Shown in pieces: positions 8,228 through 54,497 of a stretch of 64,000 nucleotides of DNA; the first letter of the stretch is position 1; each line of letters opens with the position of its first letter. The stretch covers positions 512,001 to 576,000 of the forward strand of contig MTMD02000002.1 in the NCBI GenBank assembly GCA_002010065.2. The letters are read 5' to 3'. Source of the stretch: Candidatus Pyrohabitans jungbluthii. Its GTDB lineage: Archaea; Hydrothermarchaeota; Hydrothermarchaeia; Hydrothermarchaeales; BMS3B. A program made the translations under genes and the position numbers. The notes below the pieces were generated by a model, which saw only the letters and a list, made by a program, of their open reading frames with translations, had not been told where the DNA came from and did not search any database.

Positions 8228-8232
8228 TCACA

Positions 8233-27700: not shown

Positions 27701-30700
27701 ACTTATTCCACGTATGGCTTGAATCAGAGCTGCTACGCGTGCCACACCAGTGATGGTCAGGCACCTGATGACATGGGCGACCGTTACAACAACCCGTGGA
27801 CATGTGTTGACTGCCATACCAGCGGAGGTGCAAAGGCTGGTGCCTATGGTGCGCCCATAGTTAGTGAGCACTATCGCAGTGGAGATAATATAACTGCTGT
27901 TGGTTATGCCAGCACCGACGTACTCAGCTGCCTTGCATGCCACCAGAATGCCACTGATGCCAGCCTGAGGGACTTCATGCTCATCCCTGCCAACGATCCA
28001 AATGAGGGTAGCTCCGTCTCAGATGTTGATGGAGATGGGATTAAGGGTGGCAACATAAGCTTCTACCACTATGGTAAGGATAACAGCTGGTTGAGAACAG
28101 GGCCTGGTGGCAGCACTTCCTGTCAGTTCTGCCATCAGAACAACAGCATCTTCACTGCAGTAATGAGCGATTCCACTCACAACAGCATGCAGAACCACAC
28201 TGACAATGCTGTTGTAGACTGTACTGACTGTCATGGTACTGGCTGGATACACAATGCATCGCTCACCAAGCCTGTGCTTACTGCGAGTGATGACAGCGTA
28301 TGTACAAGCTGTCATACAACCAAGAGCCGGCACAACAGCGCTGGCAACCGCGCCAATGCTGAGGAGGTAAAGTGTATTGCCTGCCACACTGGTGATGTAA
28401 ACACCTACCAGCCTAGAGACATCCACGGCATAAAGATTATTAACTCCTCGGGTGGTTATGAACAGTGGGGCACCTCTTCTCCAGCGACCTGTGTCACCTG
28501 CCACCAGAGCAACCTTGGTGGCAAATTTGCGAACGCTTCGCAGGTACCTTCACCGCTCAATCACAGCCAGGATCCCATTGCTGGGCAGAAGTGGAACAAG
28601 ACTTCGCAGGCTTACTGGACTCCTGGCGATGATCAGGAGGCGTGCAACTACTGCCATGGCGATTCCAGGCACGAGGCTAATGCACTGGGCAATGCCTCAG
28701 CTATAGAGGATTCGCTGAGCAGGAACGCCACTGACCTCAGCACCACCAGCTGGTGTGCTGGTTGCCACTACTCGGAGGCGAGCAACTACAACGGCACTGC
28801 CTTCTCGCCTCAGCCGCCCGAGATAATCACCTGGGGTGGCACAGCCAATGATGGCACAAGCTTCCAGAACCACAGCGGCTACCTCTCCAGTGGATACGAC
28901 GATAGTGTGTGCACCTCCTGCCACAGTGGTAGCACCTCTTCGACTGCGCTGTATCCGCACAACGTTTACGAGGGCGTCGCAGGCGGTCCCAACTGCATAA
29001 GCTGCCACGACATAGGTCAGAGTGGTGCTCCCAAGCACATCAACTTCACCGCTGTAAATTCAAGCGAGAATATTCACTTTAATCTGAACAATGCCACTCC
29101 TGTGAGTTATGATCCTGTTAACAGGATTTGCCTTGGCTGTCACAGCAGCGATGGAAGCGAGCCTGCGAGTGGACATCCCACAGGCTACAAGTCGCCTTAT
29201 ACCTGCGTAGACTGCCACGTTAACTCGCCACCTGCCCATGCAAGCAATGCTCCGCAGGTAAGGGAGCACTACCGCAATGGCAGCGAGGTGAAGGCGGTTA
29301 CGGACGCAGCCAGCGACGTGCTCAGCTGCATTGCGTGCCACCAGAACTCTACCACAGCAAATACAATGCTAATACCAGCCAACGATCCTGACTATGGCAG
29401 CTTTGATGCCGATGGAGACGGAGTTAGTGGCGGCAACATAAGCGCCTCTCACTATGGCAAGAAGCGCACTGATATTGTCAGTGGAGGCGTAACAAGCTGC
29501 GCCTACTGCCACCAGAACGCTGGAAGCGAGTTCGCTGGTGTGTTCAACAAGAGCGGTAATGCAGACATGCTTAACCATACTGACAACACCGTGGTAGACT
29601 GCACAGACAGTAACTGCCACTCCTCTGGCAGAATTCACGACTCTGCCTTAACCAAGCCGCCTACGATGTACAACAACACCTACTGTACCACATGCCACAC
29701 TGGCAAGGAGCTTCACGGCAGTAATACCATAACAGGAATAAGTCCACAGGGCAGCGGAGTCAACTGCTATGATTGCCATGCCGATGAAAACAAAGAGGTT
29801 GCTCCCATTCACGGCATAAGCTACATAAACACCACAGGCGGCTTCACAGTTTGGGATAACTCCAGTGCAGCCACCTGCAAGACCTGCCACCAGAGCAGCG
29901 TTGCTGATGCTGCTATAGGAGCAACTGCGCCCAAGATACGCTCACCGCTTCACCACAGCGATGATCCCATAGCCGGATGGAAGTGGAACGCCTCTGGGTA
30001 CTGGAATGACACCAACAGTGTTGAGTACGATGACTCCTGCTACTTCTGCCATGGCAGCGTGAAGCACAGCGCCAACGCCATGGGCTTAATAGTTACCAAC
30101 AACGTGACTGGGAGCAACTCCTACAACACCTCCAGCTTCGACACAAGCTACTGGTGCGCCAACTGCCACTACAGCAACAGCGCTGACAACTATGCAGGCG
30201 ACCTCTTCACGCCTAAAGTGGTTGAGATAACCTCCTGGCCAGTGAACTCAAGCGATGGGCAGCAGGAGTTTGTGAACCATACCAGTTACATCTCATCAGG
30301 TCATACTGATAGCGTTTGTAAGGGCTGCCACGGTGGCTTTGCACCTGAAACCACGGGCGACTTTGCCCACGACGTGGCTATAGGTGCAGCCGGCGGCCCC
30401 AACTGCATAAGCTGCCACGATATTGGCGCCAACCCAAGTGTAACCCACGTGATTAATGTCTCGGCCCTGCAGCAGGGTGTGCACGGCAATATTGATACCC
30501 CAGCGGATGACGCTACATATGGCTTGAATCAGAGCTGCTACGCGTGTCACACCAGTAATGGTCAGGCACCTCCAGAAGGAGATATGGGCGACCGGGCCTT
30601 TAACCCGTGGACATGTGTTGACTGCCATACCAGCGGAGGTGCAAAGGCTGGTGCCTATGGTGCGCCCATAGTTAGTGAGCACTATCGCAGTGGAGATAAT

Positions 30701-33700
30701 ATAACTGCTGTTGGTTATGCCAGCACCGACGTACTCAGCTGCCTTGCATGCCACCAGAATGCCACTGATGCCAGCCTGAGGGACTTCATGCTCATCCCTG
30801 CCAACGATCCAAATGAGGGTAGCTCCGTCTCAGATGTTGATGGAGATGGGATTAAGGGTGGCAACATAAGCTTCTACCACTATGGTAAGGATAACAGCTG
30901 GTTGAGAACAGGGCCTGGTGGCAGCACTTCCTGTCAGTTCTGCCATCAGAACAACAGCATCTTCACTGCAGTAATGAGCGATTCCACTCACAACAGCATG
31001 CAGAACCACACTGACAATGCTGTTGTAGACTGTACTGACTGTCATGGTACTGGCTGGATACACAATGCATCGCTCACCAAGCCTGTGCTTACTGCGAGTG
31101 ATGACAGCGTATGTACAAGCTGTCATACAACCAAGAGCCGGCACAACAGCGCTGGCAACCGCGCCAATGCTGAGGAGGTAAAGTGTATTGCCTGCCACAC
31201 TGGTGATGTAAACACCTACCAGCCTAGAGACATCCACGGCATAAAGATTATTAACTCCTCGGGTGGTTATGAACAGTGGGGCACCTCTTCTCCAGCGACC
31301 TGTGTCACCTGCCACCAGAGCAACCTTGGTGGCAAATTTGCGAACGCTTCGCAGGTACCTTCACCGCTCAATCACAGCCAGGATCCCATTGCTGGGCAGA
31401 AGTGGAACAAGACTTCGCAGGCTTACTGGACTCCTGGCGATGATCAGGAGGCGTGCAACTACTGCCATGGCGATTCCAGGCACGAGGCTAATGCACTGGG
31501 CAATGCCTCAGCTATAGAGGATTCGCTGAGCAGGAACGCCACTGACCTCAGCACCACCAGCTGGTGTGCTGGTTGCCACTACTCGGAGGCGAGCAACTAC
31601 AACGGCACTGCCTTCTCGCCTCAGCCGCCCGAGATAATCACCTGGGGTGGCACAGCCAATGATGGTACCACCTTCAAGAATCACAGTGAATTTGGCATTT
31701 CGCCGTCATCATATACTGACGATAAGTGCACCTCTTGCCACAGTGGTAGCACTTCTTCGACTGCGCTGTATCCGCACAACGTTTACGAGGGCGTCGCAGG
31801 CGGTCCCGAATGTACCACCTGTCACTATATAGGCAGCGCCAATCCCAACATCAACGTCACCGCCTTCTCTCTGGGTGTGCACGGCAAGATAGTTACCAAC
31901 TCCAGCACCTTCTCCACCTATGGCTACAACCAGAGCTGCTGGGCGTGCCATGCCACAGATGGTAGTGTAACTCCCAGTGGTCATCCTGATAGGCAGAAGA
32001 ACCCGTGGACCTGCGTTGACTGCCACACCTCTGGTGGAGCCAAGGCGGGTGCTTATGGCGCTCCAATAGTGAGCGAGCACTACCGCAATGGCAGCGAGGT
32101 GAAGGCGGTTACGGACGCAGCCAGTGACGTGCTCAGCTGCATTGCGTGCCACCAGAACTCTACCACAGCAAATACCATGATAATCCCGGCAAACGACCCG
32201 GATGAGGGCAGCGCTGACATGATTGATGTTGACGGCGACGGCACCAAGGGTGGTAACCTAAGCTTCTACCACTATGGTAAGAATCGTACTGATTTAATCA
32301 CAGGAGGAATAACCAGCTGTGAATACTGCCACGTGGGCGGTGGCAATGAGTTTGCCTCGCTCTTCAACAATACTCTAAATACCAACATAACCAACCACAC
32401 CGATAACAACAACCCCTACTGCACAGGCTGCCACGGCAGCGGAAGGATTCACGACGCAGCCATCTTCAAGACCAGCGTTACCAACAGCACCTTCTGCGTA
32501 AGCTGCCACGGCAGCGATGCTGTGCCAAAGCAAGCTCACGCAACAGACACCAGCGAGAACACTCTCGGTAGCGGTGTGCCCTGCGCCGACTGTCACACCT
32601 CAGTGCCCAGAGATATCCATGCAGCGAGGTACATCCTTGCAAATGGCAGCTACTCTGCGCCCTACGATAACTCTACCTATGCGGTTGCCAACTGCGTAGA
32701 TTGCCACCAGCCTGGTGGGGTGCCCTCAGCCAACTCCAAGTTCTCCAGTGCACCCATAATTTCCAAGCCCATGAACCACAGCGATAGCAACCTCTCTGGT
32801 CAGAAGTGGGGCAACTACTGGGCTCATGGCGATGATCAGAGCACGTGCAACTTCTGTCACGGTGACACCAGACACAACTCCTCTGGCCTGGGCAAGGCGA
32901 GAGTGGTTATGGGAAGCAACTCCCTCAACCAGAGCCTTGACGCTGGCATATGGTGTGCAAATTGCCACTACAAGGTTTCGTCCGAGTACAACGAAACTAA
33001 GCTCCTTAACACCTTTGGTGTGCTTCCGCCCGAAATTACCAACTACTCCACGGGTGAGATAAACTTCAGCGATGGTTCAACTTCGCAGAACCATTCTGAG
33101 CTCAACCTGGATAGCAACTATAAGGATTCTCAGTGCGACGGCTGCCACGGCTATAACAACCCGATCAAGACCTCTGGTAGCTTTGTGCACCAGGTTGCGG
33201 TTGGTAACGTGGGTGCCGAGCCCGGCGGTCCTGACTGCGTGAGCTGCCACAAGCCAGGTGGCTATGCAGAAACCTATAACCACTCCATAGATACTGATGT
33301 TATGGAGAGCAGCAGCTACATCCACCGCTACCTCAACAAGGACGCCACCGCAAGCACTTCGCTGAGCACAACCCTCAACAAAGCCTGCTGGGCATGTCAC
33401 GATCCCAAGGGTCAGGGCGTGGAGCCGGGTGCTAAGGAGCACTACAACACCACCACAACGGCGAAGCGCTGCACCGACTGCCACCTGAGCGGTGCCTTTG
33501 GCGCTCCCGTGGTGAGCGAGCACTTCTGGAATGCTCAGGAGATAAAGCTAAATAAGACAACTGCATGTGAGGACTGCCATGCAAGAGCTGAGATGGTGCT
33601 CAACCACACCGACCCCTCACCAAGTATAGCCGAGAATGCCACAATGAACGCTTCCCACTACGGCACGAAGCGCAACGATGTCAAGGCAAAGACAGGCAAC

Positions 33701-34600: not shown

Positions 34601-34666
34601 TGAGCAAAAAAGTTAAATATAAAAAAATCTAAAAAATGTTAAAAAACATTAAATATATAGGGTGAA

Positions 34667-35215
34667 GTGATGAGCGGCCTGCGTATGATGGTGCTGACGC
34701 TGGGATTGATGGCTTTGCTAACCTTAGTCATGCCCACAGCGATGGCTAAGTTCAGCGGCCAGCACCAGTTCGTGAATGGAAGTGAGGTGGATTGCGCAAA
34801 GTGCCATATTGATGTTTATGATGAGCTTACCGCTAACCCCGATGCGCCTCATGCAAACCGGAGCTGTAAGTTCTGCCATACGTGGGGTAATGAGAGTGCC
34901 CCCGGATTCTGGAAGGACCCATTGGGTTTGGATCTTAAATTTCATGCGGCTGCTACTATAGCTTGCGACAATGAATACTGCCATGGCAAGGCAGGAGCTA
35001 ACGTCACCGCTGAAATAACCAACACCTCCGCGGCGCATACGCCCTTCTACGAGAGCATGCACAACGAGCCATACCTCCAGGGCGGCAATGAAGCCTGCGT
35101 TGGCTGCCACACTCAGGTGAAGGTGAACGTCACCATATCTGAAGCCAAGGGCTTCAACATCACTGCAACGAGCAACGGTACCGACTGGAACATAACCTTC
35201 AGCATAGTACCTTAA
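34667..35215 (+). CDS. Secreted tetraheme cytochrome c, archaeal nanowire (ECN)-like subunit 1
   Basis: Signal ...MPTAMA|KFSGQHQF; CAKCH, CKFCH, CDNEYCH, NEACVGCHT; C-terminal beta-strands. Confidence 0.85.
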   Translation: MMSGLRMMVLTLGLMALLTLVMPTAMAKFSGQHQFVNGSEVDCAKCHIDVYDELTANPDAPHANRSCKFCHTWGNESAPGFWKDPLGLDLKFHAAATIACDNEYCHGKAGANVTAEITNTSAAHTPFYESMHNEPYLQGGNEACVGCHTQVKVNVTISEAKGFNITATSNGTDWNITFSIVP

Positions 35216-35284
35216 ATAAAATTTAAAGGTAATCGAAAAATATTTAAATAAGTATAAACAAAAACAAAATGGAGGTGAAAACAC

Positions 35285-35827
35285 ATGAGGAGAGTACTAC
35301 TCTTGGTGGGTGTGCTGGCACTGATGATGCTGGTGATGCCCACAGCGATGGCAAAATTCCAGAACCAGCACAGCTTCCTGAACGGCAGCAGCGTAGACTG
35401 TACCAAGTGCCACTCGGACGTCAACACGGAACTTCAGGGAAGTGACGTGAGTGTGCACAAAAATCTTGACTGCAAGGACTGCCACATAGCTCTGGGTCCG
35501 CAGGCAGCGGGCAAGGGATACCACGCTGCCGAGCTGGTGGAGTGTCTCTACTGCCACGATACCAACGCTGGTCAGAATACCACCTGGACTAATCGTCCGA
35601 TACCATCCAACAACGTTACCGCCGAGATAACCCAGACCACGGCAGCGCATAAGCCCTTCTATGAGGCGATGCTCACAGAGACCACGCTCCAGGGTGCCAA
35701 CGAAGCTTGTATAGGCTGCCACACCAATGTGCAGGTGGACGTTGCCATAACCGAACAGACCGGCTACAACATTAGCGCCACCTACGACGGTACCGGCTGG
35801 ACTGTGAGCCTGACAGGCACATTCTAA
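35285..35827 (+). CDS. Secreted tetraheme cytochrome c, ECN-like subunit 2
   Basis: GGAGGTGA RBS; ...MPTAMA|KFQNQHSF; CTKCH, CKDCH, CLYCH, NEACIGCHT; paralog of the upstream gene. Confidence 0.87.
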   Translation: MRRVLLLVGVLALMMLVMPTAMAKFQNQHSFLNGSSVDCTKCHSDVNTELQGSDVSVHKNLDCKDCHIALGPQAAGKGYHAAELVECLYCHDTNAGQNTTWTNRPIPSNNVTAEITQTTAAHKPFYEAMLTETTLQGANEACIGCHTNVQVDVAITEQTGYNISATYDGTGWTVSLTGTF

Positions 35828-35829
35828 GC

Positions 35830-35876
35830 AGGGTTAGCATAACTGCTGCTACCCTTCCCCTCTTTTTTTTATTTTC
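35830..35876 (+). terminator. Putative terminator after tetraheme gene 2
   Basis: Imperfect hairpin AGGGTTAGC...GCTACCCT followed by a T8 run. Confidence 0.55.
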
Positions 35877-35896
35877 GTTAAATTTTTGCGAGGGAA

Positions 35897-36631
35897 TTGA
35901 TGAATGCCCTTGATATAGTTGTGCTGTTTTACCTTTTGACAATGAGTTTCACCTTCCTAGTGTTCCTGCTCAGTGATAAGTTGTCCCTCCTATTCAAACG
36001 TCTTGTTACTTATGGAAAGCAGCGCAGCTTCCAGAGAAAGGTGGAGAAAAGGTATAGGGAGATGGTGGGTCTGGATAGAATACGCAAACCCACCTTTTCA
36101 GGTGCGATGCTGATAATAATCTTCTACCTCATCTTTGGCGTTTTTGCCATGAACAAGTACCTCTACTTCGCCGCCGTTGCGTCGTACAGCATGTACCCCA
36201 CCCTTGATAAGGGAGACCTTATACTTGTGCAGAGCTTTCACCTTGAGCCCGAAGTTGGAGACATTATCCTCTTCAGCGGTATAGAGGTTGGCGATGAGGA
36301 GAGGCGCGAATTCGTGAGCCACCGGGTTAAGAAAATAGAGGGTGAGAAAATATATACGGGCGGAGATGCTAGAGGTGGTCTTGACCCGTGGGTGGTGCAC
36401 CGGGAGCAGATAGTGGGCAAGGTGGTAACTCTCTTCGGTCAGCCTGTAAAAATCCCCAAGATTGGCGAGTATCTTATTATGGAAGAGGGCAAATCCATGA
36501 GAAACATCCTCCTGCTCCAGTACTTCCTCAATATGAGCAGAATTTACGGTTTTCTGATATTTATCACCGCAATGCTGCTCTACCTCTACCTCACTGCCCG
36601 TGAAGCGAGAAGGCGGGAGGTTAGTATATGA
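35897..36631 (+). CDS. Signal peptidase I (S26, ER/SipW-type Ser-His)
   Basis: VASYSMYPTLDKGDLILV, VGDIILF, VSHRV, TGGDA...DPW, IVGKV. Confidence 0.88.
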   Translation: MMNALDIVVLFYLLTMSFTFLVFLLSDKLSLLFKRLVTYGKQRSFQRKVEKRYREMVGLDRIRKPTFSGAMLIIIFYLIFGVFAMNKYLYFAAVASYSMYPTLDKGDLILVQSFHLEPEVGDIILFSGIEVGDEERREFVSHRVKKIEGEKIYTGGDARGGLDPWVVHREQIVGKVVTLFGQPVKIPKIGEYLIMEEGKSMRNILLLQYFLNMSRIYGFLIFITAMLLYLYLTAREARRREVSI

Positions 36632-37776
36632 AAACAAAGCACAAGGTCTTGCTTCTTGGTATCATCGCCATAGGCTACTACATGTTCACACTCTCCGTAG
36701 CAGAATTTAGAGGTCAGCACTCCTTCATAGCGGGTGTCCAGGTAAACTGCACCTCCTGCCATGAAAACGCTGCCTCCAACCTCTCCGCCTCTGCCTACCA
36801 CTCCAGCAAGAGCTGCACCTTCTGCCACAGCGTAACCTTTGTAAACAACTCAGCCCACGGTGCCACCACCACCATCGCCTGTACAGACTCGCTCTGCCAT
36901 GCCAACGTCACCGCTAACCTAACCTCCCCCTACGAGGCGCACAGAGACCTGTACCTTAAAGCGGAGGACTACTTCACCGGCACCTACACCTATGGTCCCA
37001 ACGAAGCGTGCATCTTCTGCCATACTAAGTATCGCAAAGAGATAACATTTTACCATCCAGAGTACATCAACTTTACCATTACAACCAACCACACATCCAA
37101 CTCCTCCTGCGACAGTGGCACCGTTAAGACCTTCAACATCACCCGCTTTGTGGTTGGACCACAGGCAACCAGACCACCCGAACTGTTTACCGACACCGGG
37201 AATCTCCACTACTTTATAAACGTTACTCAGATAAGCTGTTCCGCCAGCCCGTGCCATAAACCGATTCAAGACGCTTTAACTTATAGTATACAATATAGAG
37301 CTCACATAAGCGATGTGGAGGACGAAGGTACAGACGTGGGTCACGCTACTTCAAGCTACGACGACTCCTACTGCAAGGACTGCCACTACAACACAGCCTA
37401 TGCCTTTTTATACCCAGGCTTTGTGCACGCCGACGAGGTGCATGCTGCAGAGAAAATAAAATGCACCTCCTGCCACAGCGCTAATTTGAGTGCTCCTTTT
37501 CCCGCGTCGAATCAGGACAACAACGGCACCGAGCACGGGTGCTCCACTCTATACTATGACATAGAGAAGATTCCAATACACTACCAGGCAGATGTTTGTA
37601 TTGCCTGCCACTACCGGTATGTTCACCTGGATACAAATACTGACACATCAGCCTGCGATGCTTGCCATGTCAACAGCAACAATACCGCCTTTAACCTAAC
37701 AGTAGTTTACTATTCGGAATATTCATCAGACCCAGGTTATGTCACCATATCCGTGGTCAATCTGTCAGGCCTATAA
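36628..37776 (+). CDS. Secreted ~9-heme cytochrome with a tandem ECN-like domain pair
   Basis: A|EFRGQHSF N-terminus like the tetrahemes; 7 CxxCH and 2 CX4CH; NEACIFCHT; repeated H-(G/A)-A-x(3)-I-x-C. Confidence 0.85.
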   Translation: MKTKHKVLLLGIIAIGYYMFTLSVAEFRGQHSFIAGVQVNCTSCHENAASNLSASAYHSSKSCTFCHSVTFVNNSAHGATTTIACTDSLCHANVTANLTSPYEAHRDLYLKAEDYFTGTYTYGPNEACIFCHTKYRKEITFYHPEYINFTITTNHTSNSSCDSGTVKTFNITRFVVGPQATRPPELFTDTGNLHYFINVTQISCSASPCHKPIQDALTYSIQYRAHISDVEDEGTDVGHATSSYDDSYCKDCHYNTAYAFLYPGFVHADEVHAAEKIKCTSCHSANLSAPFPASNQDNNGTEHGCSTLYYDIEKIPIHYQADVCIACHYRYVHLDTNTDTSACDACHVNSNNTAFNLTVVYYSEYSSDPGYVTISVVNLSGL

Positions 37777-37853: not shown

Positions 37854-38696
37854 TTGTATGACATGGAAGTAAGGCTTGAGGAGAAGTTTGCCCTCAGTTT
37901 GTTATTTATCGCACCTTTGCTCATGGTTTATTTTCCACTCTATTTCTACTATCACGGCTTCAAACATGGGGACATGGATTTATCACATATAATACTCTCC
38001 GCCCTCCTGTTTTCTCTTGGATTTTATGCTCTTTCAGGCTCGTTCAGGATATATAGTAAAGTTAAAAAACATCTCCACCTTGAGGGAGCCTTTAAAACTC
38101 TAATATTACCTGCAGTGGAGCCCCTTCTCAGGCAGATAGCTCTTCAAACAGTGTCCATGCAGGAACTTGAGAATAAAATCTCGCAAGTCAACCGTTTTCT
38201 GGACAAAATTTCTCCAACTGATAAACCAGCCACATCCAGGGTGCAGTCAGCAGCTTTCCAGAGGAACTCCATAGCTCTCGGCATTTTAACCCTCGCCATT
38301 GCTACCTTCCTGCATCTTACCTCCAGCACCTTCCTCCAGGCTTACATAACCTTTCTACTCTTCTTCGGCTGGTGGCATCTAATAACCTCAGAATTCAACC
38401 TCCACTACTCCATCCGCTCCTACATCACCCTGGCGATTTTCGCCATAGGTGAACTCTTAATACTCTTCTTTCTCCCAACCAAAGGAGTATTCACCAACCT
38501 GTTCTACACCTACCTGAACCTTACCATTATTGTGTATGCCTACTATCGCCTGGCTTTCATAGACTCACCTCGGGTCATTATAGAAAGAAGTTTCATCGCC
38601 TACAGAACTGTTCGACACTTTCTCTCGTTACTTATCCGGGACTTCGTAGGTAGCCACTTTGAATATGGCAAAAAATTTTTAAATAATAAAAAATAA
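37854..38696 (+). CDS. Membrane protein with central coiled coil (paralog A)
   Basis: 2 TM, helical linker, 4 TM; FFGWWHLITSEF. Confidence 0.75.
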   Translation: MYDMEVRLEEKFALSLLFIAPLLMVYFPLYFYYHGFKHGDMDLSHIILSALLFSLGFYALSGSFRIYSKVKKHLHLEGAFKTLILPAVEPLLRQIALQTVSMQELENKISQVNRFLDKISPTDKPATSRVQSAAFQRNSIALGILTLAIATFLHLTSSTFLQAYITFLLFFGWWHLITSEFNLHYSIRSYITLAIFAIGELLILFFLPTKGVFTNLFYTYLNLTIIVYAYYRLAFIDSPRVIIERSFIAYRTVRHFLSLLIRDFVGSHFEYGKKFLNNKK

Positions 38697-38714: not shown

Positions 38715-39608
38715 ATGCGGGAGCGCATAGAACTCAACGAGAAGATTTCCCTTGCCATAGCGGGTTTTGTAGCAGTAGGTATGTTTTTACTATCCATATA
38801 TTCCCTCTTCAAGGATATCTTTATCTCCTTCTCTGCACCTGGGATTCTCTTGGACATAGCCTTTATATTCCTTTCTCTATATCTCGGAAGCGGTATACTG
38901 AAAACTTACAACAGAATTACATACTCTGCCGCTATAGACAGGGAATTCAGAGAGGCTCTTCTAAAGAGGCTTGAGCCTGCCCTCAAAGAGGTTGCAAAGA
39001 GTCATGTGTACCTCCAGGAGCTTGACAAAAAGGTGACACTTCTCTCAAAAAGGGTCTCTACTATAAGTGCCGCATACCCCGCCAGGCCTGCCCGAGCAGC
39101 GCCTGGAGAATTTTCCCCCTTCTTCCAGAGGGCGGTATTCATGAGCCTCCTCACCCTTGGGTCACTGATTTTTGTAAACCTTCGCATAAGCCAGACCGGT
39201 GCTTATGTGGTACTTGTTCTTTTCTTCCTGTGGTGGCTCATAATTACTGATGAATTTGGGCTTTTCGCAGATTTTGGTGCCTATATGTTCATAATAGGCC
39301 CTCTGCTTGTCGTTCCCATAGCTTCAATAATCCTCCTTGCCTATCTTGATGTATTTTACATGCTCATGATTCTTTATCTTGCTCTGGTAATATACGTCTT
39401 ACTTTATTACTCTGCGGCCAGCTATCAGGTTACTGGCAGAATACCCCTGCTTGAGAGAAGCAACTACAACATGTACAGAAATGGCGGTGCTAAGGGTGCA
39501 AACGCTCGCGAGAGGGATGGCGGCTCTCTAATTAACGATAACGGTAGAAAACCCTCCTTCACCAGACGTGTTGTGGAACTTTTGCTGGAAAGGTTAAAGC
39601 ATGGTTAG
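38715..39608 (+). CDS. Membrane protein with central coiled coil (paralog B)
   Basis: Same layout; LEPALKEVA...QELDKKV; FFLWWLIITDEF. Confidence 0.75.
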   Translation: MRERIELNEKISLAIAGFVAVGMFLLSIYSLFKDIFISFSAPGILLDIAFIFLSLYLGSGILKTYNRITYSAAIDREFREALLKRLEPALKEVAKSHVYLQELDKKVTLLSKRVSTISAAYPARPARAAPGEFSPFFQRAVFMSLLTLGSLIFVNLRISQTGAYVVLVLFFLWWLIITDEFGLFADFGAYMFIIGPLLVVPIASIILLAYLDVFYMLMILYLALVIYVLLYYSAASYQVTGRIPLLERSNYNMYRNGGAKGANARERDGGSLINDNGRKPSFTRRVVELLLERLKHG

Positions 39609-39656: not shown

Positions 39657-40322
39657 ATGAAGGGCGTAATACTTACGGTGGTGATTATGTTAATGATACT
39701 GGCAGCATCTCTGTATGCTCAGGAGGTAGTGGAGATAAGGGAGGAGCAAGCGAAGCTGCTGAAGAGATACACCGCCTTCTCAACCCACTCCGGCTGGATA
39801 TGCAATAAGTGTCATCTTCAGATAATGGGAGAACAGAGGTTCAGGGAGGTGACAGGTGGGTGTTTGTGCCATCGCAGTCCCTATGGTAAACCCGCCAAAG
39901 TTACAATAGAGAATGTCCAGAAATATGCCCACGACGCAAACCACTGCATGCTGTGCCATGCGGGGACAAAGAATGTGAATACTGATGTCTATCACAAAAT
40001 TGTACACTACAACGTATCCTGCAGCAAATGTCACGATATAAGGAAAAAAAATGATGAGTTCGATATAATAAAGCCGAAAAGTACATATTGCAGAGGATGC
40101 CATTCAGAGGATGTGCATGTGGTGCATGGTCTTAGACTGGACAGGCTCTGCGAATACTGCCATGGAAAAGAATTTGCAAGAAAGTATGTGTCCGTGGGGC
40201 TTGAACCACCTGAGGTGAAGTTAGAGAAGAATCAAACCCTGGTAAAACCAAAGGAGGAAGAGAGAGGTGGTATACCATCCATCAGCGAACTCATATTCAA
40301 GATTTTGGACATTATTTTCTGA
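39657..40322 (+). CDS. Multiheme cytochrome c (5 CxxCH plus one CxCH)
   Basis: N-terminal hydrophobic segment; CNKCH, CLCH, CMLCH, CSKCH, CRGCH, CEYCH; amphipathic tail SISELIFKILDIIF. Confidence 0.85.
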   Translation: MKGVILTVVIMLMILAASLYAQEVVEIREEQAKLLKRYTAFSTHSGWICNKCHLQIMGEQRFREVTGGCLCHRSPYGKPAKVTIENVQKYAHDANHCMLCHAGTKNVNTDVYHKIVHYNVSCSKCHDIRKKNDEFDIIKPKSTYCRGCHSEDVHVVHGLRLDRLCEYCHGKEFARKYVSVGLEPPEVKLEKNQTLVKPKEEERGGIPSISELIFKILDIIF

Positions 40323-40764
40323 GGTAGCCGCTATTCTCGCGATAATTGCCTTGGTGGCAGGATGCACTCTACCGAAGCAGGAGGAGGTGATTGTGTATAA
40401 GGTTATCGCAGAGATAAATGAGAGTCATCAGATAACCAATGTAACCTGCTACCAGGAGAAACTACCGATAAACAAGGTAAAAATAACCACTGGTGAAGGG
40501 GAACCACCTATGGTTGGAATGAAGGTTTTTGTTGTGGACAATGTCAACAAGAAAATTCACGGCTCCAACTGGGCGCTTATTGCCTATGAAGGACCTGGCA
40601 AATATGAAGCTACATTGTATGTAGAAGACGGATACATTCCGAGTGAGGTAGATGTGGTAGGCTGTTATGTAAAATTGTTGGATAGGTATCTTAAGCCGGT
40701 TTCAATGAGTGGAGGGGAAGCAGAGATAGTATATCCAAGAGAGAAACTGGAGGAGAGCAAATGA
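40267..40764 (+). CDS. Putative lipoprotein
   Basis: Lipobox-like IIALVAGC; start uncertain. Confidence 0.6.
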   Translation: MVYHPSANSYSRFWTLFSEVAAILAIIALVAGCTLPKQEEVIVYKVIAEINESHQITNVTCYQEKLPINKVKITTGEGEPPMVGMKVFVVDNVNKKIHGSNWALIAYEGPGKYEATLYVEDGYIPSEVDVVGCYVKLLDRYLKPVSMSGGEAEIVYPREKLEESK

Positions 40765-42470
40765 GGTATGCTCTTGCTTTCGTGGTTTTCCTAATATTAA
40801 TCTCAGGTGTTGCTCATGCTCAGTCGGAAATAGTACTCGTTGACAGTGTCTTAGGCTTGGGAAATTATGAAGCAAGATCTACCAACATCTTCAAGCCGGG
40901 GGATACCGTAAAAGTCTACATGGAAGCGGACGACGTAAACCACCGCGGCCTTGTGGCGGTGAATTTTGTGGTGTTCCTGTACAACACCTATAGTGGTCAT
41001 TATGAGCTTTGGGATTTTCAGAGGCTCAGGGTGAGGTACCTCAACTACAGGGAAAAGGATACATATGCGGTTTACGAATTCAAAATACCTGAAGACTTCA
41101 ATCCCGGGGAATATACAATAAAGATTGCAGCCTACGACGTTGCAAATGAAGAGAATTTAAACGAGGTTTTCGCACAAATGCAAAACTTTTTTGAACCTGA
41201 TTTCTCAAAACCCAACACCTATGTGAATGCTCCGCAGGGTGAGGATGCAGCGGACGCGTACTATGGAAACCTGGGATTAATTAAATCAGAGGACTGGAGA
41301 ACGCTGAAGTTCATAAAAACTCTCAGCTTTAAGGTGGTTACTTCCCCGCGGGAGGTGGAGGAGCTTGCCAGCAAGGTCAATTTTACAAATAAGATAAACA
41401 TAACTGCCACCTATCTGGGGTTGTTAAACGGCTCCCATCAAAACGGCATTTTTAAACAGGGAGGAGAAATGGCAATAAATGTCACAGCCAGAGGGATAAA
41501 CCACCAGGGGCTTGTGGCACTTGACTTTATTTTTACAATAGTGGATAAAGACCTCTTGCCTTTGGCGAAGCCTGAGACTTACAGGGTACGCTTCAAGACA
41601 TATAAGGAAAGGGACTTCACCTTTACCTACAACTTCACAGATAAAAAACTTGAACCCGGTGAATACTACCTTGATATCAAAATTTATGACAGAGCAAATC
41701 CAGATTACATTGAAGATGTGCTGAATGCATTGAAGTTCACGTCTGATTTCGACACCTCAAAGATAACCACATACCTTAACATGCCCGAAGGGGTTAATGT
41801 GAATGACAACACCTACTCATCTATTGGCGCTCTAAAGGCGATGGACTACACCACCCTTGTATTTTCCTCTAAGATACCATTTAAAGTGATTAAAGAGGAA
41901 GAGGTTCCCATAGAAGTCCTGGAGGAGCTGAAGCCAGAGATTGAGGTGCTTGAGCTTGAGACAAGCAAATATCTGCTAAAGCCAAACGAACCCTTTAGGG
42001 TGATCCTTACTGTCAAGAATCACGGAGGCAGCGGGAGGGCTTCCATAACCGTTACTCTGTCAGGCGAGACTCGTGAATATCGCCTGCCAAAAGACTTTTT
42101 ATTTGAGGCGAATGAGACCAGAAAGGTATCTTTTGAGATAAATCTGCCCATGGAGGAAGGAGTCTGGCGAGTAGGCGTTGTGAACACCACAATCATTCGC
42201 CCTGTTTTCGTCTTTGCAGGTGAGCTGGGCAAGAAGGAGGAGGTGCCTGAGGAGGAACTGGAAGAGCGGCTCAAGCCGCAAAAGAGGGAGAGGAACCCCT
42301 ACCCAATGGCCATCCTTGCAGCAGTTCTGTTGCCTCTCTTAATTCTCAAGCTGGTTATTAAGGGCTTGAAGATACCGGTGAGTGAATGGACCGGATTGGG
42401 TCTAAACTTTACAATAGCTGTTGTTCTTATCCTCTTTGCCGCTTATGCCGTCTATTATTTCATTTTATGA
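40761..42470 (+). CDS. Secreted, C-terminally anchored protein with duplicated Ig-like domain
   Basis: Signal peptide; repeats IFKPGD..VNHRGLVAVNF..PGEY..YD / IFKQGG..INHQGLVALDF..PGEY..YD; CARDB-like domain; two C-terminal TM. Confidence 0.78.
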   Translation: MRYALAFVVFLILISGVAHAQSEIVLVDSVLGLGNYEARSTNIFKPGDTVKVYMEADDVNHRGLVAVNFVVFLYNTYSGHYELWDFQRLRVRYLNYREKDTYAVYEFKIPEDFNPGEYTIKIAAYDVANEENLNEVFAQMQNFFEPDFSKPNTYVNAPQGEDAADAYYGNLGLIKSEDWRTLKFIKTLSFKVVTSPREVEELASKVNFTNKINITATYLGLLNGSHQNGIFKQGGEMAINVTARGINHQGLVALDFIFTIVDKDLLPLAKPETYRVRFKTYKERDFTFTYNFTDKKLEPGEYYLDIKIYDRANPDYIEDVLNALKFTSDFDTSKITTYLNMPEGVNVNDNTYSSIGALKAMDYTTLVFSSKIPFKVIKEEEVPIEVLEELKPEIEVLELETSKYLLKPNEPFRVILTVKNHGGSGRASITVTLSGETREYRLPKDFLFEANETRKVSFEINLPMEEGVWRVGVVNTTIIRPVFVFAGELGKKEEVPEEELEERLKPQKRERNPYPMAILAAVLLPLLILKLVIKGLKIPVSEWTGLGLNFTIAVVLILFAAYAVYYFIL

Positions 42471-42963: not shown

Positions 42964-45900
42964 CTATCCAAAAATTTTTACAAATCGCCGGTTAATGTAC
43001 AATAAGATTACAGCCAGTAAAAGGATGAAGTTTGGTCCACACAGATATTTCTTATTACCAGCTTCTAAATCCTCATGGGCTATATTTTCTTTTTTCATAA
43101 TAATTCTTCCTTTTCCTTTTTGTCGTGTTTTATCCACCATTTCCGCAACCGCGAATTCTGATTCATTGAATGTGGTTTCTTTAAAAGCTTTTTCTAGGTA
43201 TTTTGAGACGAATACATTTAATGGCTTTCTTTCCACATCAAACCAGCTTTTTACAACCAGTACAAGCTCATAACTCTTATTTGCAGTAGCGCTGGTGGGT
43301 ATTGTTAGGGTGATGAGGTGTTCGCTTATTCCTGGGAGGATATACCCCCTGAAGGATGGGCTGCTCCACCCATGGGGCAGATTTTCGAGATACACTTCTA
43401 CGCCAGGTTCAGCATAGTTGCTGCTCAATTTTACCCTGATGGGCACTGAATCTCCTGGGTAGATAGTCTTCGTGGGCAGAGCTACTTCGAGAATAGTAAT
43501 TCTGTGAGACATGCCATCTCCGTCTGAAACTTCATAGGAACTGCCTGTGTTACTCTGCTTGCCCATCACACCCCAAAGGGAGAGCCCACTAACCCTTGCC
43601 CAGACATAATGTGAGGATGTATCAACTCCAGAGTCAAAGAGAGTAACATTACCCAGAGGCGCTGGGCACGCGAGAACTTCGCAATCGGCCCTTATCCAGC
43701 CTTCCTTGGTGAACCTTGCAACTCTCAGGGATTCCTCTTTTATATCCTGAGGTATATCACTCTGGTTGTAGTATATTTTTAGGATGATGTACTCCATGTC
43801 AGAAAGCCAGGTTGAGTTATCTTCAGAAAAGTTGAGGAAGATGGGCAGGGTTAGATTTTCTTCTACGCTTTCTGGTAAGGAGGTGGAAATGTTTACGGTT
43901 ATATTACCACCAGTCGTTGTGTTGCCTGCTTTGAAAACCACCTCATAGCTGCCCAGCAGAGTGTTCACCACACCAGTGCTGTAGTTCTCACCCCCAGCGA
44001 GGTGAGGAATCGTATGGTGTTTTATGAGGGTTGTGATCACTGTAAGATTTCTCACACCTGTGGAAATAACATTCTGAGCAAGGTCGTTCACTACCAACTC
44101 CCAGGTGTGGTTTCCATCAGCAAGCTGCACTTTTTTCACGACCTGGCTACCATTGGTGAAGGTGCCAAAGTACTGCTGGGCGCCACCGTCTATGATCAGC
44201 CTGTATGCCAGAGTTTCATCCACGTCATCGCCTGCTTCAAACTTAAAGGATACCTCTGCTCTGGTGGAGATGTAATTGTTTACCGGTTCAACCCCTTGCA
44301 GGTATGGCGCCTGAGAGTCCACCCTAACCTCTATGGCTTCGCTTTCATTGCTGTTGCCAGCTTTGTCATACACTTCCACAGGGAGATAATATACTCCAGA
44401 CGTTATATTCCCCACAACAACTGAGTCGTTGATGTAAAAGCCGTTGTTCTCGCTGAGGAGCACTATACCCGCTCCGATTGTGGAGGCATTTACCACCACT
44501 CTGTCTACCTTTTCATCGAAGGCGGTGATGTTAAGTGTTATGACATCCCCGGGCTTTGCGACGCTCTTTCCACTTGGATATATGGTAGGGTTCACCGTAA
44601 CGCTGGGCGGGGTGTTGTCCACGATAATTGTAAAGCTCTGAGTACTGTTCTCATTTCCTACGCGGTCTTTGGCAGAAACATTAAAGGTGTAGGAACCCTC
44701 CGGGTATTCGATGGAAAACGAAGCCCCAAAAGCCCCCGGGCTGACCTCCACCATTGTGCTAATGGGGCTTCCATTTTCATTGAGTATTTTTATGGAACTG
44801 GTGTTAACACCTGAGAGAAGGTCAGCAATGGAAGCGTTTACCCATAGTGAAGCGCCTGTGGTGAGATACTCGCTGCTAATGCTGATGTTCTCTACTCGTG
44901 GAGGTGTCACATCCAGTGCGGCAAAGCTGTGTTTTATGCTCTCTGCGTTACCTGCCCTATCCACAGAATAGTATTCTATTGTGTGGTTTCCTTCAGTATC
45001 GATAAAAATCTGGTTCCCCTCCTGCCATGAGGAGTTGTCTATCCTGTAATATGTATAATTGCAGCCCGATAGGTTATCGGTGCAGCTCAGATTTACCGTA
45101 AACTCTGACCTCTGCCATTCTGAGGGTGCATCGTCGCTGGTTGAGGGAGCGCTAAGGTCTACGGTGAAGTTCCAGGATTCTGAGCTCTTTGAGTTTCCTG
45201 CGGAATCTGTACAGTTTGCATACCAGGTATAGACACCTTCAGAAAGCTCTATGTAAGTCTGATTTGAAGAGTTGCCGGGCAGGTTAGAGAAGTTAAGCCT
45301 CAGGTTTTTCTCCCCGTTTATGTAAACATCGCAGTAGGAAAAGTTGCTCAGATTCTCCTCTATGCTCAATCTGAAGAGTATGGAGCTTATATTGAAGATT
45401 TCCTCGCTCCTGGGAGTCTCTCTGTGCAGCGTGGGTGGTGTGTTGTCCACCACAATTGTGAGCTGCTGGCTACTATTTACATTCCCGGCCACATCTCTTG
45501 CTGAGAAGTTGTAGGTGTGGAGCCCTTCGAGATAATCCACTGTAATCTCTGCCATAAAGGAACTTTGGCTTATGTTGTGCATCTGTGCCAAGACTGTGCC
45601 GTTTTCATAGAGGATGAAAACTGAGCTGTTATCCACGCCAGAAGCTGCATCGTATACCTCGACAGTGACAGTGATAGTATCGCCCGTTCTTAAGTATGTT
45701 CTGCTTGCAATGGGATTCTCAAACTTAGGGGCCTGGTTATCCAGCCTGTCCGTTAGAGGGAGATAATCTATGTTTGTTCCGCCTGAGATGTTGTAGGGTT
45801 GTTCTCCTATCCCGTCCCCATCTGTATCCCAGCCTTCGTAGCCAGAGTAGAAGTTGCCTCCTGTAGAGGAGTTCCAGTAGTTGGTGCCGCTGTCGTAGAC

Positions 45901-48402
45901 GCTGCCGTATATAAAGTTACTGTAGATGAGGTTATTAAAACACGCCAGCACTTTTAATCCATAATCCTGGTTTCCTGTGATGTTGTTTGAGCTAATGGTA
46001 TTGCCGTGGCTTTTCTCCAGTGTTATGCCAAGGTAATTTTGCTCAACCTTTATATCCTGTATGCTCGAGCCGTTGGTGTTATACAGGTAGATTCCAGAGG
46101 CACCGCTTGCGTTTGCTCCCCTTATGGTGAACCCTGAGATATTTACAGCAGAGGTGTTGCTAATTAGCAGGGCATGCGCTGAGGGATCAGCGGCTACGAT
46201 AAATGTTGAAGTGTTCCCTCCGCCGATAAGGTTTATGCTCTTGTTCACGAATACGTTTTCAGTATAGGTGCCAGGGGCTACATACACCGTCTCTGCTGGT
46301 GTGGCATAATCTATGCCCGCCTGAATTGTAGGTACTTCCTCGGGCACTCTAATAACTGAGGCGTTTACCGTGAAGCTCACCGCTGAAGCATTTAGATTGC
46401 CCCAGCTGTCGTTGGCATACACAGTTAAGTTATGGAGACCATTGCTCAGGAAAGAGAGGTTAAGTAGCAGTGTGTTGCCAGCAAAGGGGGTGCTGTTATC
46501 TCCGTCGTCCACCGAGTACCATATAAAGGTGGTGCTCTCATCGGAGATACTAACGTTGAGTAGTGGTGTGTGGTCCCCCTGTACTGAGCCATTCGCTGGG
46601 GAATGTATTTGAATCTCTGGCGGAGCTATATCCACAGGATTTACCCTTACGGTGAAGTTCTCAAAGCTTGAGGTGTAGTTCTCGTTTCCTTCAAAGGTGG
46701 CATTGAAGTAAAAGACTCCGCTGGTGTTCATTTGTATGATAACCTCAAGGGGTGATGAGCCTGAAACCAGGACTTTGTCAACGCCATCGGAGTAGTTGGT
46801 AGTAACGGTGACATTTCCTGAGTCCGGCACCACCAAGACGGCTGTAAAGTTCAGGGTATCAAACTGGTTCACAACCGCATCGCTACGGGTACCATTTATG
46901 TAGAGGTGAACCGAGGAGTCAGCCTTTAAAACCTCAAGCGCTTGGGAAACACTTCCGCTGGTGTAGTTCTGTCCGCCTGAGGTGTTGAATACGTAAATGT
47001 AAACCCCCGCAGCTAAGGTTGAGATATCAGGGTTCGCCACTGGCGTGCCATTCCTGTATAAGGTGTATGTAACGTCCTCATCGCCTAAGTTGGTTTCCAT
47101 GCCGGTTATGTTCGTCTCGCTCCCGTAGGTAACGCTCCACCCTGGCGAAGCGGTTAGGTTGAGGGTAGGCGAGGCTTTGGAAACAGTGTAATAAAAGATG
47201 TCGGTGGCGTTGACCAGACCTTCGGTGTTGTTGGCATACATTCGCCACTGATAAACCCCTGCGGCAAGGGAGGGATAGGTGTAGGAGTAGGTTGACCCGG
47301 AGTAGCTGCTCACAGTGTAGTTGACCAAGCTTCCTGTGAAGTTGTGCTCTATTAACACGGTGTCAATTGCAGAATCCGGCTCGCTCCATGTTACATTGAA
47401 CTGGTAGGTTTGGGAAAAAGAGTAGCTAACAGGCGCTGGAGGCGAAGCTGAGGGGTTGCTCCAGAGGGGAGGAGTGGTGTCTGCAGGTGCTGCTATCTCA
47501 ATCGTCCTGGTCTCACTTACGTTGAGATTCCCTGCACTGTCATTAGCCCACACGCGATAGGTGTAATTCCCATTCGCCAGGTTGGTCTTGTTTATATACC
47601 AGTTCGTCCCGCTCCCGCTCATGCTCTCGTTGGTGCCGTTCCACTCTAACCAGGCTGTTCCAGGTTCGCTCAGAGTGACGTTTATGAAAGTGTATCTGCG
47701 GTCTGTTATTGTAGCTCCATCAGGGTCAGTTGGTGGGACGAAGGTTATAGTGGGGGGTGTATTGTCGGGCGGTTGCCACGGCCAGACCACTAGAGGGTAG
47801 GGGTCCTCGTTGTTGGAATCTATGATGTAGGAACTGTCGCAGATGTTGTCCCCGTCCGAGTCAGTGCAGTCAGTGTTCTTCTCCCACTTATTGCCCACAT
47901 TGTAGCCGTCGATGGTGGAGTACCAGGTGTTTGTAACTAAAAAAGTTAGAGAAATAGTTTCGTGATAATCTTCTTGGGTATTGTTGAGGTAGTTGTTGTA
48001 GTATGTAGCACCATTCCCGGTATTTTCAATACCATAGTAATTGGAGGATATATTATTTCCTGTTATCACAGCGCTGGACCCTACTTGAATTCCTCCCTCC
48101 CAGTCGGTTATGACGCAGTTTCTTACCGTAACATTGACCAAGTCGGTGGGTATAGAAATTCCTATACTATTAGAATTATCAGTCCCATCTATTCTGTAAC
48201 CCTGACAGTCAAGCACAACGTCACTTGCGGAGATAGTTATGCAGGTGGAAGCGTAAGAGTCGATTATGTCACCTATTAGATAGTAAACACCTGAAGTGTC
48301 AATGTTAACCCCACATGAACTAATCGTCGCAGCACTACCCTCTCCAACAAGGGCAACAAAAGCTACCACCAAGCACAGGAGGAGTTGTCTTATTTTTTCC
48401 AT
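42964..48402 (-). CDS. Large cell-surface protein (NosD/CASH beta-helix and Ig-like repeats, CGP-CTERM)
   Basis: Signal peptide; two parallel beta-helix regions with DxDGDxI motifs; many D-x-AGN Ig repeats; LCGPNFILLLAVILLYINRR. Confidence 0.85.
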   Translation of the reverse strand: MEKIRQLLLCLVVAFVALVGEGSAATISSCGVNIDTSGVYYLIGDIIDSYASTCITISASDVVLDCQGYRIDGTDNSNSIGISIPTDLVNVTVRNCVITDWEGGIQVGSSAVITGNNISSNYYGIENTGNGATYYNNYLNNTQEDYHETISLTFLVTNTWYSTIDGYNVGNKWEKNTDCTDSDGDNICDSSYIIDSNNEDPYPLVVWPWQPPDNTPPTITFVPPTDPDGATITDRRYTFINVTLSEPGTAWLEWNGTNESMSGSGTNWYINKTNLANGNYTYRVWANDSAGNLNVSETRTIEIAAPADTTPPLWSNPSASPPAPVSYSFSQTYQFNVTWSEPDSAIDTVLIEHNFTGSLVNYTVSSYSGSTYSYTYPSLAAGVYQWRMYANNTEGLVNATDIFYYTVSKASPTLNLTASPGWSVTYGSETNITGMETNLGDEDVTYTLYRNGTPVANPDISTLAAGVYIYVFNTSGGQNYTSGSVSQALEVLKADSSVHLYINGTRSDAVVNQFDTLNFTAVLVVPDSGNVTVTTNYSDGVDKVLVSGSSPLEVIIQMNTSGVFYFNATFEGNENYTSSFENFTVRVNPVDIAPPEIQIHSPANGSVQGDHTPLLNVSISDESTTFIWYSVDDGDNSTPFAGNTLLLNLSFLSNGLHNLTVYANDSWGNLNASAVSFTVNASVIRVPEEVPTIQAGIDYATPAETVYVAPGTYTENVFVNKSINLIGGGNTSTFIVAADPSAHALLISNTSAVNISGFTIRGANASGASGIYLYNTNGSSIQDIKVEQNYLGITLEKSHGNTISSNNITGNQDYGLKVLACFNNLIYSNFIYGSVYDSGTNYWNSSTGGNFYSGYEGWDTDGDGIGEQPYNISGGTNIDYLPLTDRLDNQAPKFENPIASRTYLRTGDTITVTVEVYDAASGVDNSSVFILYENGTVLAQMHNISQSSFMAEITVDYLEGLHTYNFSARDVAGNVNSSQQLTIVVDNTPPTLHRETPRSEEIFNISSILFRLSIEENLSNFSYCDVYINGEKNLRLNFSNLPGNSSNQTYIELSEGVYTWYANCTDSAGNSKSSESWNFTVDLSAPSTSDDAPSEWQRSEFTVNLSCTDNLSGCNYTYYRIDNSSWQEGNQIFIDTEGNHTIEYYSVDRAGNAESIKHSFAALDVTPPRVENISISSEYLTTGASLWVNASIADLLSGVNTSSIKILNENGSPISTMVEVSPGAFGASFSIEYPEGSYTFNVSAKDRVGNENSTQSFTIIVDNTPPSVTVNPTIYPSGKSVAKPGDVITLNITAFDEKVDRVVVNASTIGAGIVLLSENNGFYINDSVVVGNITSGVYYLPVEVYDKAGNSNESEAIEVRVDSQAPYLQGVEPVNNYISTRAEVSFKFEAGDDVDETLAYRLIIDGGAQQYFGTFTNGSQVVKKVQLADGNHTWELVVNDLAQNVISTGVRNLTVITTLIKHHTIPHLAGGENYSTGVVNTLLGSYEVVFKAGNTTTGGNITVNISTSLPESVEENLTLPIFLNFSEDNSTWLSDMEYIILKIYYNQSDIPQDIKEESLRVARFTKEGWIRADCEVLACPAPLGNVTLFDSGVDTSSHYVWARVSGLSLWGVMGKQSNTGSSYEVSDGDGMSHRITILEVALPTKTIYPGDSVPIRVKLSSNYAEPGVEVYLENLPHGWSSPSFRGYILPGISEHLITLTIPTSATANKSYELVLVVKSWFDVERKPLNVFVSKYLEKAFKETTFNESEFAVAEMVDKTRQKGKGRIIMKKENIAHEDLEAGNKKYLCGPNFILLLAVILLYINRRFVKIFG

Positions 48403-53117: not shown

Positions 53118-53121
53118 GCTT

Positions 53122-54495: not shown

Positions 54496-54497
54496 TT

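Follow-up and report, generated by a model that had tools for sequence, protein, structure and literature searches.

Tandem AvECN-family tetraheme cytochromes in a Hydrothermarchaeota gene cluster are candidate subunits of an extracellular heme filament

Does an uncultured hydrothermal archaeon encode the subunits of a cytochrome nanowire? The question is raised by a stretch of 64,000 nucleotides of Candidatus Pyrohabitans jungbluthii (contig MTMD02000002.1, positions 512,001 to 576,000 of the forward strand; hereafter, the window), in which two adjacent open reading frames, ECN-A and ECN-B, encode small tetraheme c-type cytochromes. A preliminary description, made from the letters alone, had suggested a resemblance to the nanowire subunit of Archaeoglobus veneficus and had proposed that the two are highly expressed wire subunits with their own promoters and a terminator. 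On the sequence evidence presented below, ECN-A and ECN-B are almost certainly tetraheme cytochromes of the AvECN family, named here after AvECN (F2KMU8; PDB 8E5G), the subunit of the A. veneficus extracellular cytochrome filament. We further consider it probable that both are AvECN-family subunits of a head-to-tail extracellular heme filament, working together with the other cytochromes of their gene cluster. All positions are those of the window unless stated otherwise.

Relationship of ECN-A and ECN-B to AvECN

ECN-A and ECN-B are 48% identical to each other (84 of 175 aligned positions, E = 2e-51). Each begins with a hydrophobic, signal-like segment that ends in LVMPTAMA and is followed by KF..QH.F, with a cut predicted between AMA and KF; for ECN-A, the public gene call (P0003) uses the ATG start, giving 181 amino acids (aa). 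The motifs HAA, NVTAEIT, AAH.PFYE and NEAC.GCHT are found in the two proteins alike. ECN-B has four CxxCH heme motifs; those of ECN-A are CAKCH, CKFCH, C-DNEY-CH (a CX4CH motif at the third site) and CVGCH. There are exactly eight histidines in ECN-B, whose distal histidines are His29, His58, His80 and His122, and nine in ECN-A. The predicted mature subunit has about 156 aa for four hemes, and the AlphaFold2 (AF2) model of ECN-B places beta strands at its C-terminus (residues 161-167 and 172-179). The preliminary description had named a pair of tetraheme paralogs with a shared cleavage context, these motifs and terminal beta strands; we could locate all the sequence features in both open reading frames and the strands in the model of ECN-B.

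The suggested likeness to the A. veneficus subunit proved to be true homology. In single-sequence searches of the PDB, 8E5G, which is identified as AvECN by the legend of Fig. 2 in PMC12954529, was matched by ECN-B with E = 5.6e-14 (residues 4-174 on 7-217 of 262) and by ECN-A with E = 9e-12, and every other PDB chain had E of at least 0.16 for either protein. A profile built from 94 family sequences, all of them single-domain members, matched 8E5G with E = 7.2e-57 over residues 2-251 of 262, the next PDB match having E = 8.4e-14; the family hidden Markov model (HMM) matched ECN-A with E = 8e-56. The homology to AvECN is near full length: the four heme motifs align in order, as do the four distal histidines of ECN-B, and AvECN likewise has a signal sequence at its N-terminus with an F..QH motif behind it, and a C-terminal beta-hairpin region. 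Fifteen columns are invariant in the 94 sequences, namely the four CxxCH motifs together with H29, H80 and H122, while at least 90% of them have H58. Since eight histidines are available in this arrangement, all four hemes would have bis-histidine ligation.

The family is large. When 1.84 billion cluster representatives were searched exhaustively with a profile, 416 relatives came up at E ≤1e-3, of which 255 reached ≤1e-10 and 48 reached ≤1e-30; short members of 159-181 aa are common among the top matches. A word-index homologue search returned only five proteins and underestimates the family size. Pfam and NCBIfam gave ECN-A and ECN-B only generic c7, c3, NrfH-like and MtrC-domain matches, at or under the cut-off.

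The fold points in the same direction at lower strength. The AF2 model of ECN-B, built without hemes, has a pLDDT of 85.2. When it was compared with the PDB by Foldseek, as the preliminary description had suggested, 8E5G was the sole match with E ≤0.001 among 58 matches with E ≤10 (E = 2e-4, probability 1.00, TM-score 0.45, root-mean-square deviation [rmsd] 9.4 Å over 204 columns). On re-alignment of 57 chains by VIA, 8E5G alone reached Z ≥2 (Z = 5.4, rmsd 4.4 Å, 147 residues). Because these structural values are modest, the assignment to the AvECN family is carried by the sequence evidence.

Predicted polymer interface and proposed assembly

We modeled a homotrimer of mature ECN-B (residues 25-180) by ESMFold2, using a 94-row alignment and no hemes. 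Its median ipSAE of 0.58 compares with 0.00 for the highest-scoring of three controls; in the calibration of this score, 20 of 30 solved one-chain pairs attained the mark, as did 1 of 23 solved single chains. Three runs agreed, with at least 81% of contacts in common and a partner pLDDT of at least 72. The predicted trimer is open-ended and head-to-tail, the middle copy having two faces engaged and the outer copies one each. Residues 143-148, which belong to the heme-4 motif, contact residues 27-32, 37 and 41-42 of the next copy, that is, its new N-terminus and heme-1 motif. A head-to-tail interface, whose absence the preliminary description had counted against a nanowire role, is in this way predicted for the ECN-B homotrimer, and the prediction supports head-to-tail polymerisation without proving it. 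Between ECN-A and ECN-B, 39 of 77 predicted interface positions are identical (51%), compared with 20 of 63 positions elsewhere (32%), heme ligands excluded, and the insertions and deletions that distinguish the two lie outside the predicted interface.

Based on these findings, we propose a plausible route from gene to filament. Each precursor would be exported by means of its N-terminal signal peptide, and the Ccm system of the genome would load it with four bis-histidine c-type hemes. The signal peptide would then be cut between AMA and KF, plausibly by the Sec11-type peptidase encoded immediately downstream. This cleavage would free the conserved N-terminus K-F-x-x-Q-H, including a heme-ligand histidine, inside the predicted interface. 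The subunits could now polymerise head-to-tail, each subunit bringing its heme 4 up against the newly formed N-terminus and heme 1 of its neighbor, and the outcome would be a continuous, insulated heme chain outside the cell, as in AvECN. Such a filament would serve extracellular electron transfer in concert with the neighboring giant cytochrome (about 72 heme motifs) and the remaining cytochromes of the cluster. A two-domain, nine-heme protein and the membrane proteins of the cluster may prime, anchor or mature the filament. As far as genes and models can tell, the odds are moderately in favor of both proteins forming extracellular filaments as described.

Conservation, expression signals and competing explanations

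Of 41 genomes compared (the genome of the window and 40 relatives), 21 have a match to ECN-B at E ≤0.001. For a comparison of loci, species-representative genomes were queried with an 18-row alignment, and the best 80 of 213 confirmed relatives gave 75 loci; A. veneficus itself is not among these best 80, so that the AvECN locus lies outside the 75. The closest of the 80 carry Hydrothermarchaeota-type labels, and the other labels are Methanoperedens, Syntrophoarchaeum, Methanophagales/ANME-1 (anaerobic methanotrophic archaea, ANME), Methanocellales, Thermoplasmata and Archaeoglobi. Small ECN genes stand in tandem at 30 of the 75 loci, in up to five copies. A signal peptidase is encoded at 24, and all 24 also encode a protein like TM297, one of two polytopic membrane proteins of the cluster. 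A longer, multi-domain ECN protein (330-600 aa) is present at 18 loci, usually right behind the peptidase, a pentaheme protein at 19 and a counterpart of the 569-aa cluster protein at 21. The gene cluster is conserved: the module recurs in records that carry Hydrothermarchaeota, Methanoperedens, ANME-1, Methanocellales and Thermoplasmata labels, and is mostly present in one Archaeoglobus-labelled record. In some relatives, a single ECN copy lies next to the peptidase (loci L020 and L033).

In a tree of 45 rows, ECN-A and ECN-B are each other's nearest rows and fall in a 24-row clade (99/99 support) with Hydrothermarchaeota-type sequences, unresolved at its base. The idea that they are one-to-one orthologues of the 207/225-aa pairs of relatives found no support in this tree. 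Tandem copies elsewhere are often lineage-specific and near-identical, as at locus L035, which suggests repeated recent duplication, not an old two-subunit design. We also considered whether the subunits evolve faster than their neighbors. ECN-A and ECN-B are 36-46% identical to the copies of relatives, the peptidase 37-49% and the other cluster proteins 26-42%; with values of 26-49% for the cluster as a whole, the subunits do not stand out as evolving fast, and the idea was dropped.

The sequences around the genes may bear on how strongly each is expressed; of nine sequencing runs listed for the window, eight contain part of it and none is recorded as RNA. The preliminary description had placed an AT-rich spacer ahead of both genes, and so we found: the G+C content (GC) is 0.17 before ECN-A and 0.20 before ECN-B, against 0.505 for the window, the lowest values among the 20 listed intergenic gaps of at least 30 nt. 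Stretches of 66 nt with GC ≤0.20 occur at only eight merged places in the window, all of which begin inside a listed intergenic gap or at most about 25 nt from one. The perfect ribosome-binding site ascribed to ECN-B also stands. The 8-nt Shine-Dalgarno sequence GGAGGTGA (35271-35278), 6 nt ahead of the ATG, is complementary to the 3' end of the genome's own 16S rRNA, GGATCACCTCCT, and is the longest match of the 34 gene starts examined in the window, whereas ECN-A has GGTGA alone (5 nt, 34661-34665). Of the terminator proposed behind ECN-B, one half held. The T8 run (35863-35870) is one of only two T runs of at least eight on the + strand of the window and is, by itself, a plausible archaeal terminator. 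The hairpin, which ends 7 nt before it, is no better than chance (-10.5 kcal/mol, z = -1.62, 15 of 200 shuffles folding as well) and was dropped as evidence. A scan for sigma-70 promoters and intrinsic terminators found nothing on the + strand here, but it uses the bacterial consensus and says nothing on archaeal promoters; its four promoter-like and two terminator-like sites were all on the - strand, with no excess over shuffles. The strong ribosome-binding site and the T8 run make ECN-B the likelier bulk subunit, and the T8 run ahead of the peptidase gene might keep the accessory genes at lower levels.

Could ECN-A and ECN-B work without polymerising? They might be tetraheme shuttles like STC, cytochrome c3 or PpcA, diffusing between membrane and S-layer and passing electrons between complexes in the membrane and the giant cytochrome. 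Such carriers would be expected to be small, and with about 156 mature residues for four hemes these proteins are; the generic Pfam and NCBIfam matches, the absence of about 80 AvECN residues, the C-terminal 45 or so included, and the many genomes with several stand-alone copies away from the peptidase cluster would also suit this role. We nevertheless consider shuttles unlikely, since the homology is specific, full-length and to a protein solved as a filament (profile E of 7e-57, the next PDB chain having 8e-14), since an open-ended head-to-tail interface is predicted where the controls gave zero, and since ECN-A and ECN-B agree better at the interface positions than elsewhere. If there is a filament, the two proteins might instead co-polymerise in a single mixed one, rather than forming separate homopolymers or serving as condition-specific alternatives. 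The tandem pairs and arrays of relatives would fit a mixed filament, as would the higher identity and the lack of indels at the interface and the possibility of a shared transcript, ECN-A having no T-run terminator. The solved cytochrome filaments, in contrast, are all described as homopolymers (10.1101/2023.06.12.544705), ECN-A and ECN-B are nearest to each other and not orthologous one-to-one to the pairs of relatives, and in some relatives only one copy accompanies the peptidase. We regard co-polymerisation as very unlikely.

Several observations weigh against our preferred reading of ECN-A and ECN-B as AvECN-type filament subunits, or against parts of it. At 180 aa against 262, they have about 80 residues fewer than AvECN, whose last 45 or so and several loops they lack. 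The fold match to 8E5G is modest, as its TM-score shows, and the Z value is under the safe level of the tool. The trimer was modeled without hemes and departs from the calibration of its score in having three copies instead of two and its own alignment, and because the AvECN filament is already solved, the score may be a memory of that structure. At 41 loci, 3 kb or more of sequence is available on either side; the peptidase module is present at 15 of them, and at the other 26 the ECN genes stand without a peptidase, so the link between ECN and peptidase is not obligatory, and loci of the module type and stand-alone loci both exist. As for expression, no T run longer than three lies 3' of ECN-A. 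With its weaker Shine-Dalgarno sequence and without a T-run terminator, ECN-A does not bear out the earlier idea of two independent, highly expressed units; it may be co-transcribed with ECN-B, reading through into it. In relatives, 12 of 17 spacers between ECN and peptidase genes contain a T run of at least five, as do 30 of 43 spacers between ECN genes, counts that have no matched control and that AT-rich spacers could yield by chance.

The cluster, comparable systems and significance

The features of the cluster are listed in Table 1. All of them are on the + strand, in the order in which they are given.

Table 1. Positions of the cytochrome genes, their spacers and the following cluster genes in the window.
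Feature	Positions	Strand	Details
Giant multiheme cytochrome, 3294 aa	24716..34600	+	Directly upstream of the ECN-A spacer; signal peptide, MtrC/MtrF-like domain matches
AT-rich spacer before ECN-A, putative archaeal promoter region	34601..34666	+	TTAAATAT-like boxes, GC 0.17
ECN-A, tetraheme c-type cytochrome	34667 (GTG) or 34670 (ATG)..35215	+	182 or 181 aa
AT-rich spacer before ECN-B	35216..35284	+	GC 0.20; contains the 8-nt Shine-Dalgarno GGAGGTGA
ECN-B, tetraheme c-type cytochrome	35285..35827	+	180 aa; predicted cleavage between A23 and K24
Weak hairpin (35830-35855), then T8 (35863-35870); putative archaeal oligo-T terminator/attenuator	35830..35870	+	Between ECN-B and the peptidase gene
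Sec11/archaeal-type signal peptidase I (S26)	35897..36631	+	Pfam PF10502
382-aa cytochrome, nine heme motifs, signal peptide	36628..37776	+	Two ECN-like domains, residues 1-169 and 193-353
Polytopic membrane protein TM280	37854..38696	+	TM297 paralogue with WW motif
Polytopic membrane protein TM297	38715..39608	+	W173-W174 invariant in 26/26 sequences
Pentaheme cytochrome, 221 aa	39657..40322	+	N-terminal hydrophobic segment; conserved in cluster
165-aa conserved cluster protein	40267..40764	+	One hydrophobic segment, no family match
569-aa conserved cluster protein	40761..42470	+	Signal peptide; beta-sandwich-like repeats (Wzt_C match), C-terminal hydrophobic helices

The giant cytochrome has 69 CxxCH, three CX4CH and one CxxCK motif, as well as 106 N-x-S/T sequons. 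It also contains a 1.3-kb internal direct repeat (27710-28990 versus 30515-31807, 96.5% identity), which is either a recent duplication of a module or an assembly issue. The signal peptidase passes the cut-off of PF10502 (27.9 bits against 22.9) and lies just under that of TIGR02228 (50.6/51.1 bits against 51.85). It is the second, more divergent copy in the genome, a better match (121 bits) being encoded elsewhere on the contig. All 24 cluster homologues retain its residues S98-M99-x-P101-T102, H142-R143, G156-D157 and D163; we take S98 of the S-M-x-P-T box, H142 of the H-R box and a conserved Asp to be catalytic. The stop of the peptidase gene overlaps the start of the gene for the 382-aa cytochrome, whose two domains match the family HMM with E = 3e-33 and 4.5e-12 and which matches ECN-B with E = 9e-13; as a single sequence it had no match in the PDB. 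TM280 and TM297 have no family match, and close relatives have a single protein of 373-411 aa in their place.

On a bolder reading, the recurrent module of one to several small AvECN-type genes, a private Sec11-type signal peptidase, a multi-domain ECN-like cytochrome and a WW-motif membrane protein would be an archaeal apparatus devoted to the construction and anchoring of nanowires, in which the cut between AMA and K makes the N-terminus of the interface, the nine-heme protein, as a covalent "dimer," primes or couples the filament, and ECN-A and ECN-B form a mixed wire. We think this combination quite improbable.

For heme maturation, the genome carries CcmC/F-type and CcmE genes. Two CcmE matches on different contigs have an identical score and E-value (G000:C2:99256-99555 and G000:C8:187153-187452), and there are two long CcmF-type open reading frames (777 and 801 aa); this doubling may reflect a duplicated maturation system or assembly redundancy. 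Upstream in the window (5746-8910 and 12525-15204) are genes for heme o synthase, ferrochelatase, protoporphyrinogen oxidase and a divergent heme-copper oxidase subunit I. The latter matches Pfam COX1 (E = 6e-47) and no NCBIfam model, and lies 26 kb upstream of the cytochrome cluster, contiguous with it; oxidase genes in such metagenome-assembled genomes (MAGs) were earlier set aside as possible contamination (PMC6759336). Directly past the cluster, on the - strand (42964-50993), two proteins of 1815 and 867 aa carry NosD/beta-helix and bacterial Ig-like domains and may act at the cell surface or in adhesion. Farther on, three consecutive - strand genes (51819-55787) include two with tubulin/FtsZ-family GTPase matches (E = 1e-7 and 1e-23) and, between them, a gene for a 457-aa protein without a family match.

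How does the locus compare with what is known? Among archaea, only two cytochrome filaments have been solved and their physiological role is described as unresolved (PMC13748539). Homologues of AvECN are known from diverse archaea (PMC12954529, PMC13046784, PMC11176372, PMC13748539). Two of them have been proposed to form nanowires: MmcX of the Methanocellales archaeon Met12, a four-heme AvECN homologue (PMC11176372), and ECN-Mv of 'Ca. Methanoperedens vercellensis', a four-heme protein with 29% identity and E = 3e-12 to AvECN (PMC13748539). For both, as for ECN-A and ECN-B, the proposal comes from sequence or predicted structure, and the similarity of ECN-Mv to AvECN is like that of our pair. 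MmcX and ECN-Mv are reported without a filament structure, the ECN-Mv filament being described as not resolved (PMC13748539). They differ from ECN-A and ECN-B in belonging to other lineages, ours falling in the separate 24-row clade. AvECN itself differs in sequence, with about 24-26% identity in structural alignments; ECN-A has the CX4CH third motif, two tandem paralogues are present here, and the host is of another, uncultured lineage.

OmcE and OmcS of Geobacter and PcECN of P. calidifontis likely follow the same principle, in which small multiheme subunits form a continuous chain of bis-histidine hemes; none of the three appears among the PDB sequence matches of ECN-A and ECN-B at E ≤10 or in the Foldseek list. 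An interfacial heme of OmcS and OmcE is ligated by a histidine from the adjacent subunit (PMC12954529).

The peptidase and TM297 recall a pair described by Chadwick et al. 2022 (PMC9012536) in ANME, Syntrophoarchaeum, Geoglobus and Ferroglobus: an "8x TMH" protein with conserved tryptophans and a signal peptidase, whose genes adjoin those of multiheme cytochromes and for which a role in maturation was suggested. In that paper, the pair is tied to CcmF2 and the S-layer cytochrome MHC-B, and homologues in other organisms are stated to be absent. TM297 is probably the "8x TMH" protein, matched by description only; a crude hydropathy scan of TM297 gave fewer than eight segments. In both cases a peptidase and a WW-motif membrane protein occur together, here at every peptidase locus. 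The module differs in that the pair lies directly behind AvECN-type genes and is also found in records labelled Hydrothermarchaeota, Methanocellales and Thermoplasmata.

In Bacillus, SipW is a dedicated signal peptidase of the endoplasmic reticulum/archaeal type, encoded beside the fibre subunit TasA that it processes. The match of the cluster peptidase to the SipW model is weak (E = 3.3e-4; 20.3 bits, where the cut-off is 190), and the likeness is one of analogy only, the subunits being unrelated. To our knowledge, none of the archaeal cytochrome filaments has a demonstrated assembly factor, and we know of no heteropolymeric cytochrome filament. Our literature search, which did not cover the original description of AvECN, found no paper linking AvECN to a signal peptidase and, one unrelated review aside, none linking Hydrothermarchaeota to nanowires.

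Cytochrome nanowires are the current structural explanation of long-range extracellular electron transfer. In MAGs of Hydrothermarchaeota, Kato et al. 2019 noted multiheme cytochromes bearing as many as 67 motifs (PMC6759336). Our analysis now places compact AvECN-type subunits in this uncultured hydrothermal lineage, which had been noted only for large multiheme cytochromes in that report. The mature subunits, at 156 aa, would be small targets for the heterologous production of conductive filaments. The recurrent module of ECN, peptidase, WW-motif protein and multi-domain ECN may be more useful than the pair of ECN-A and ECN-B itself, as it supplies concrete candidates for the processing and anchoring of filaments.

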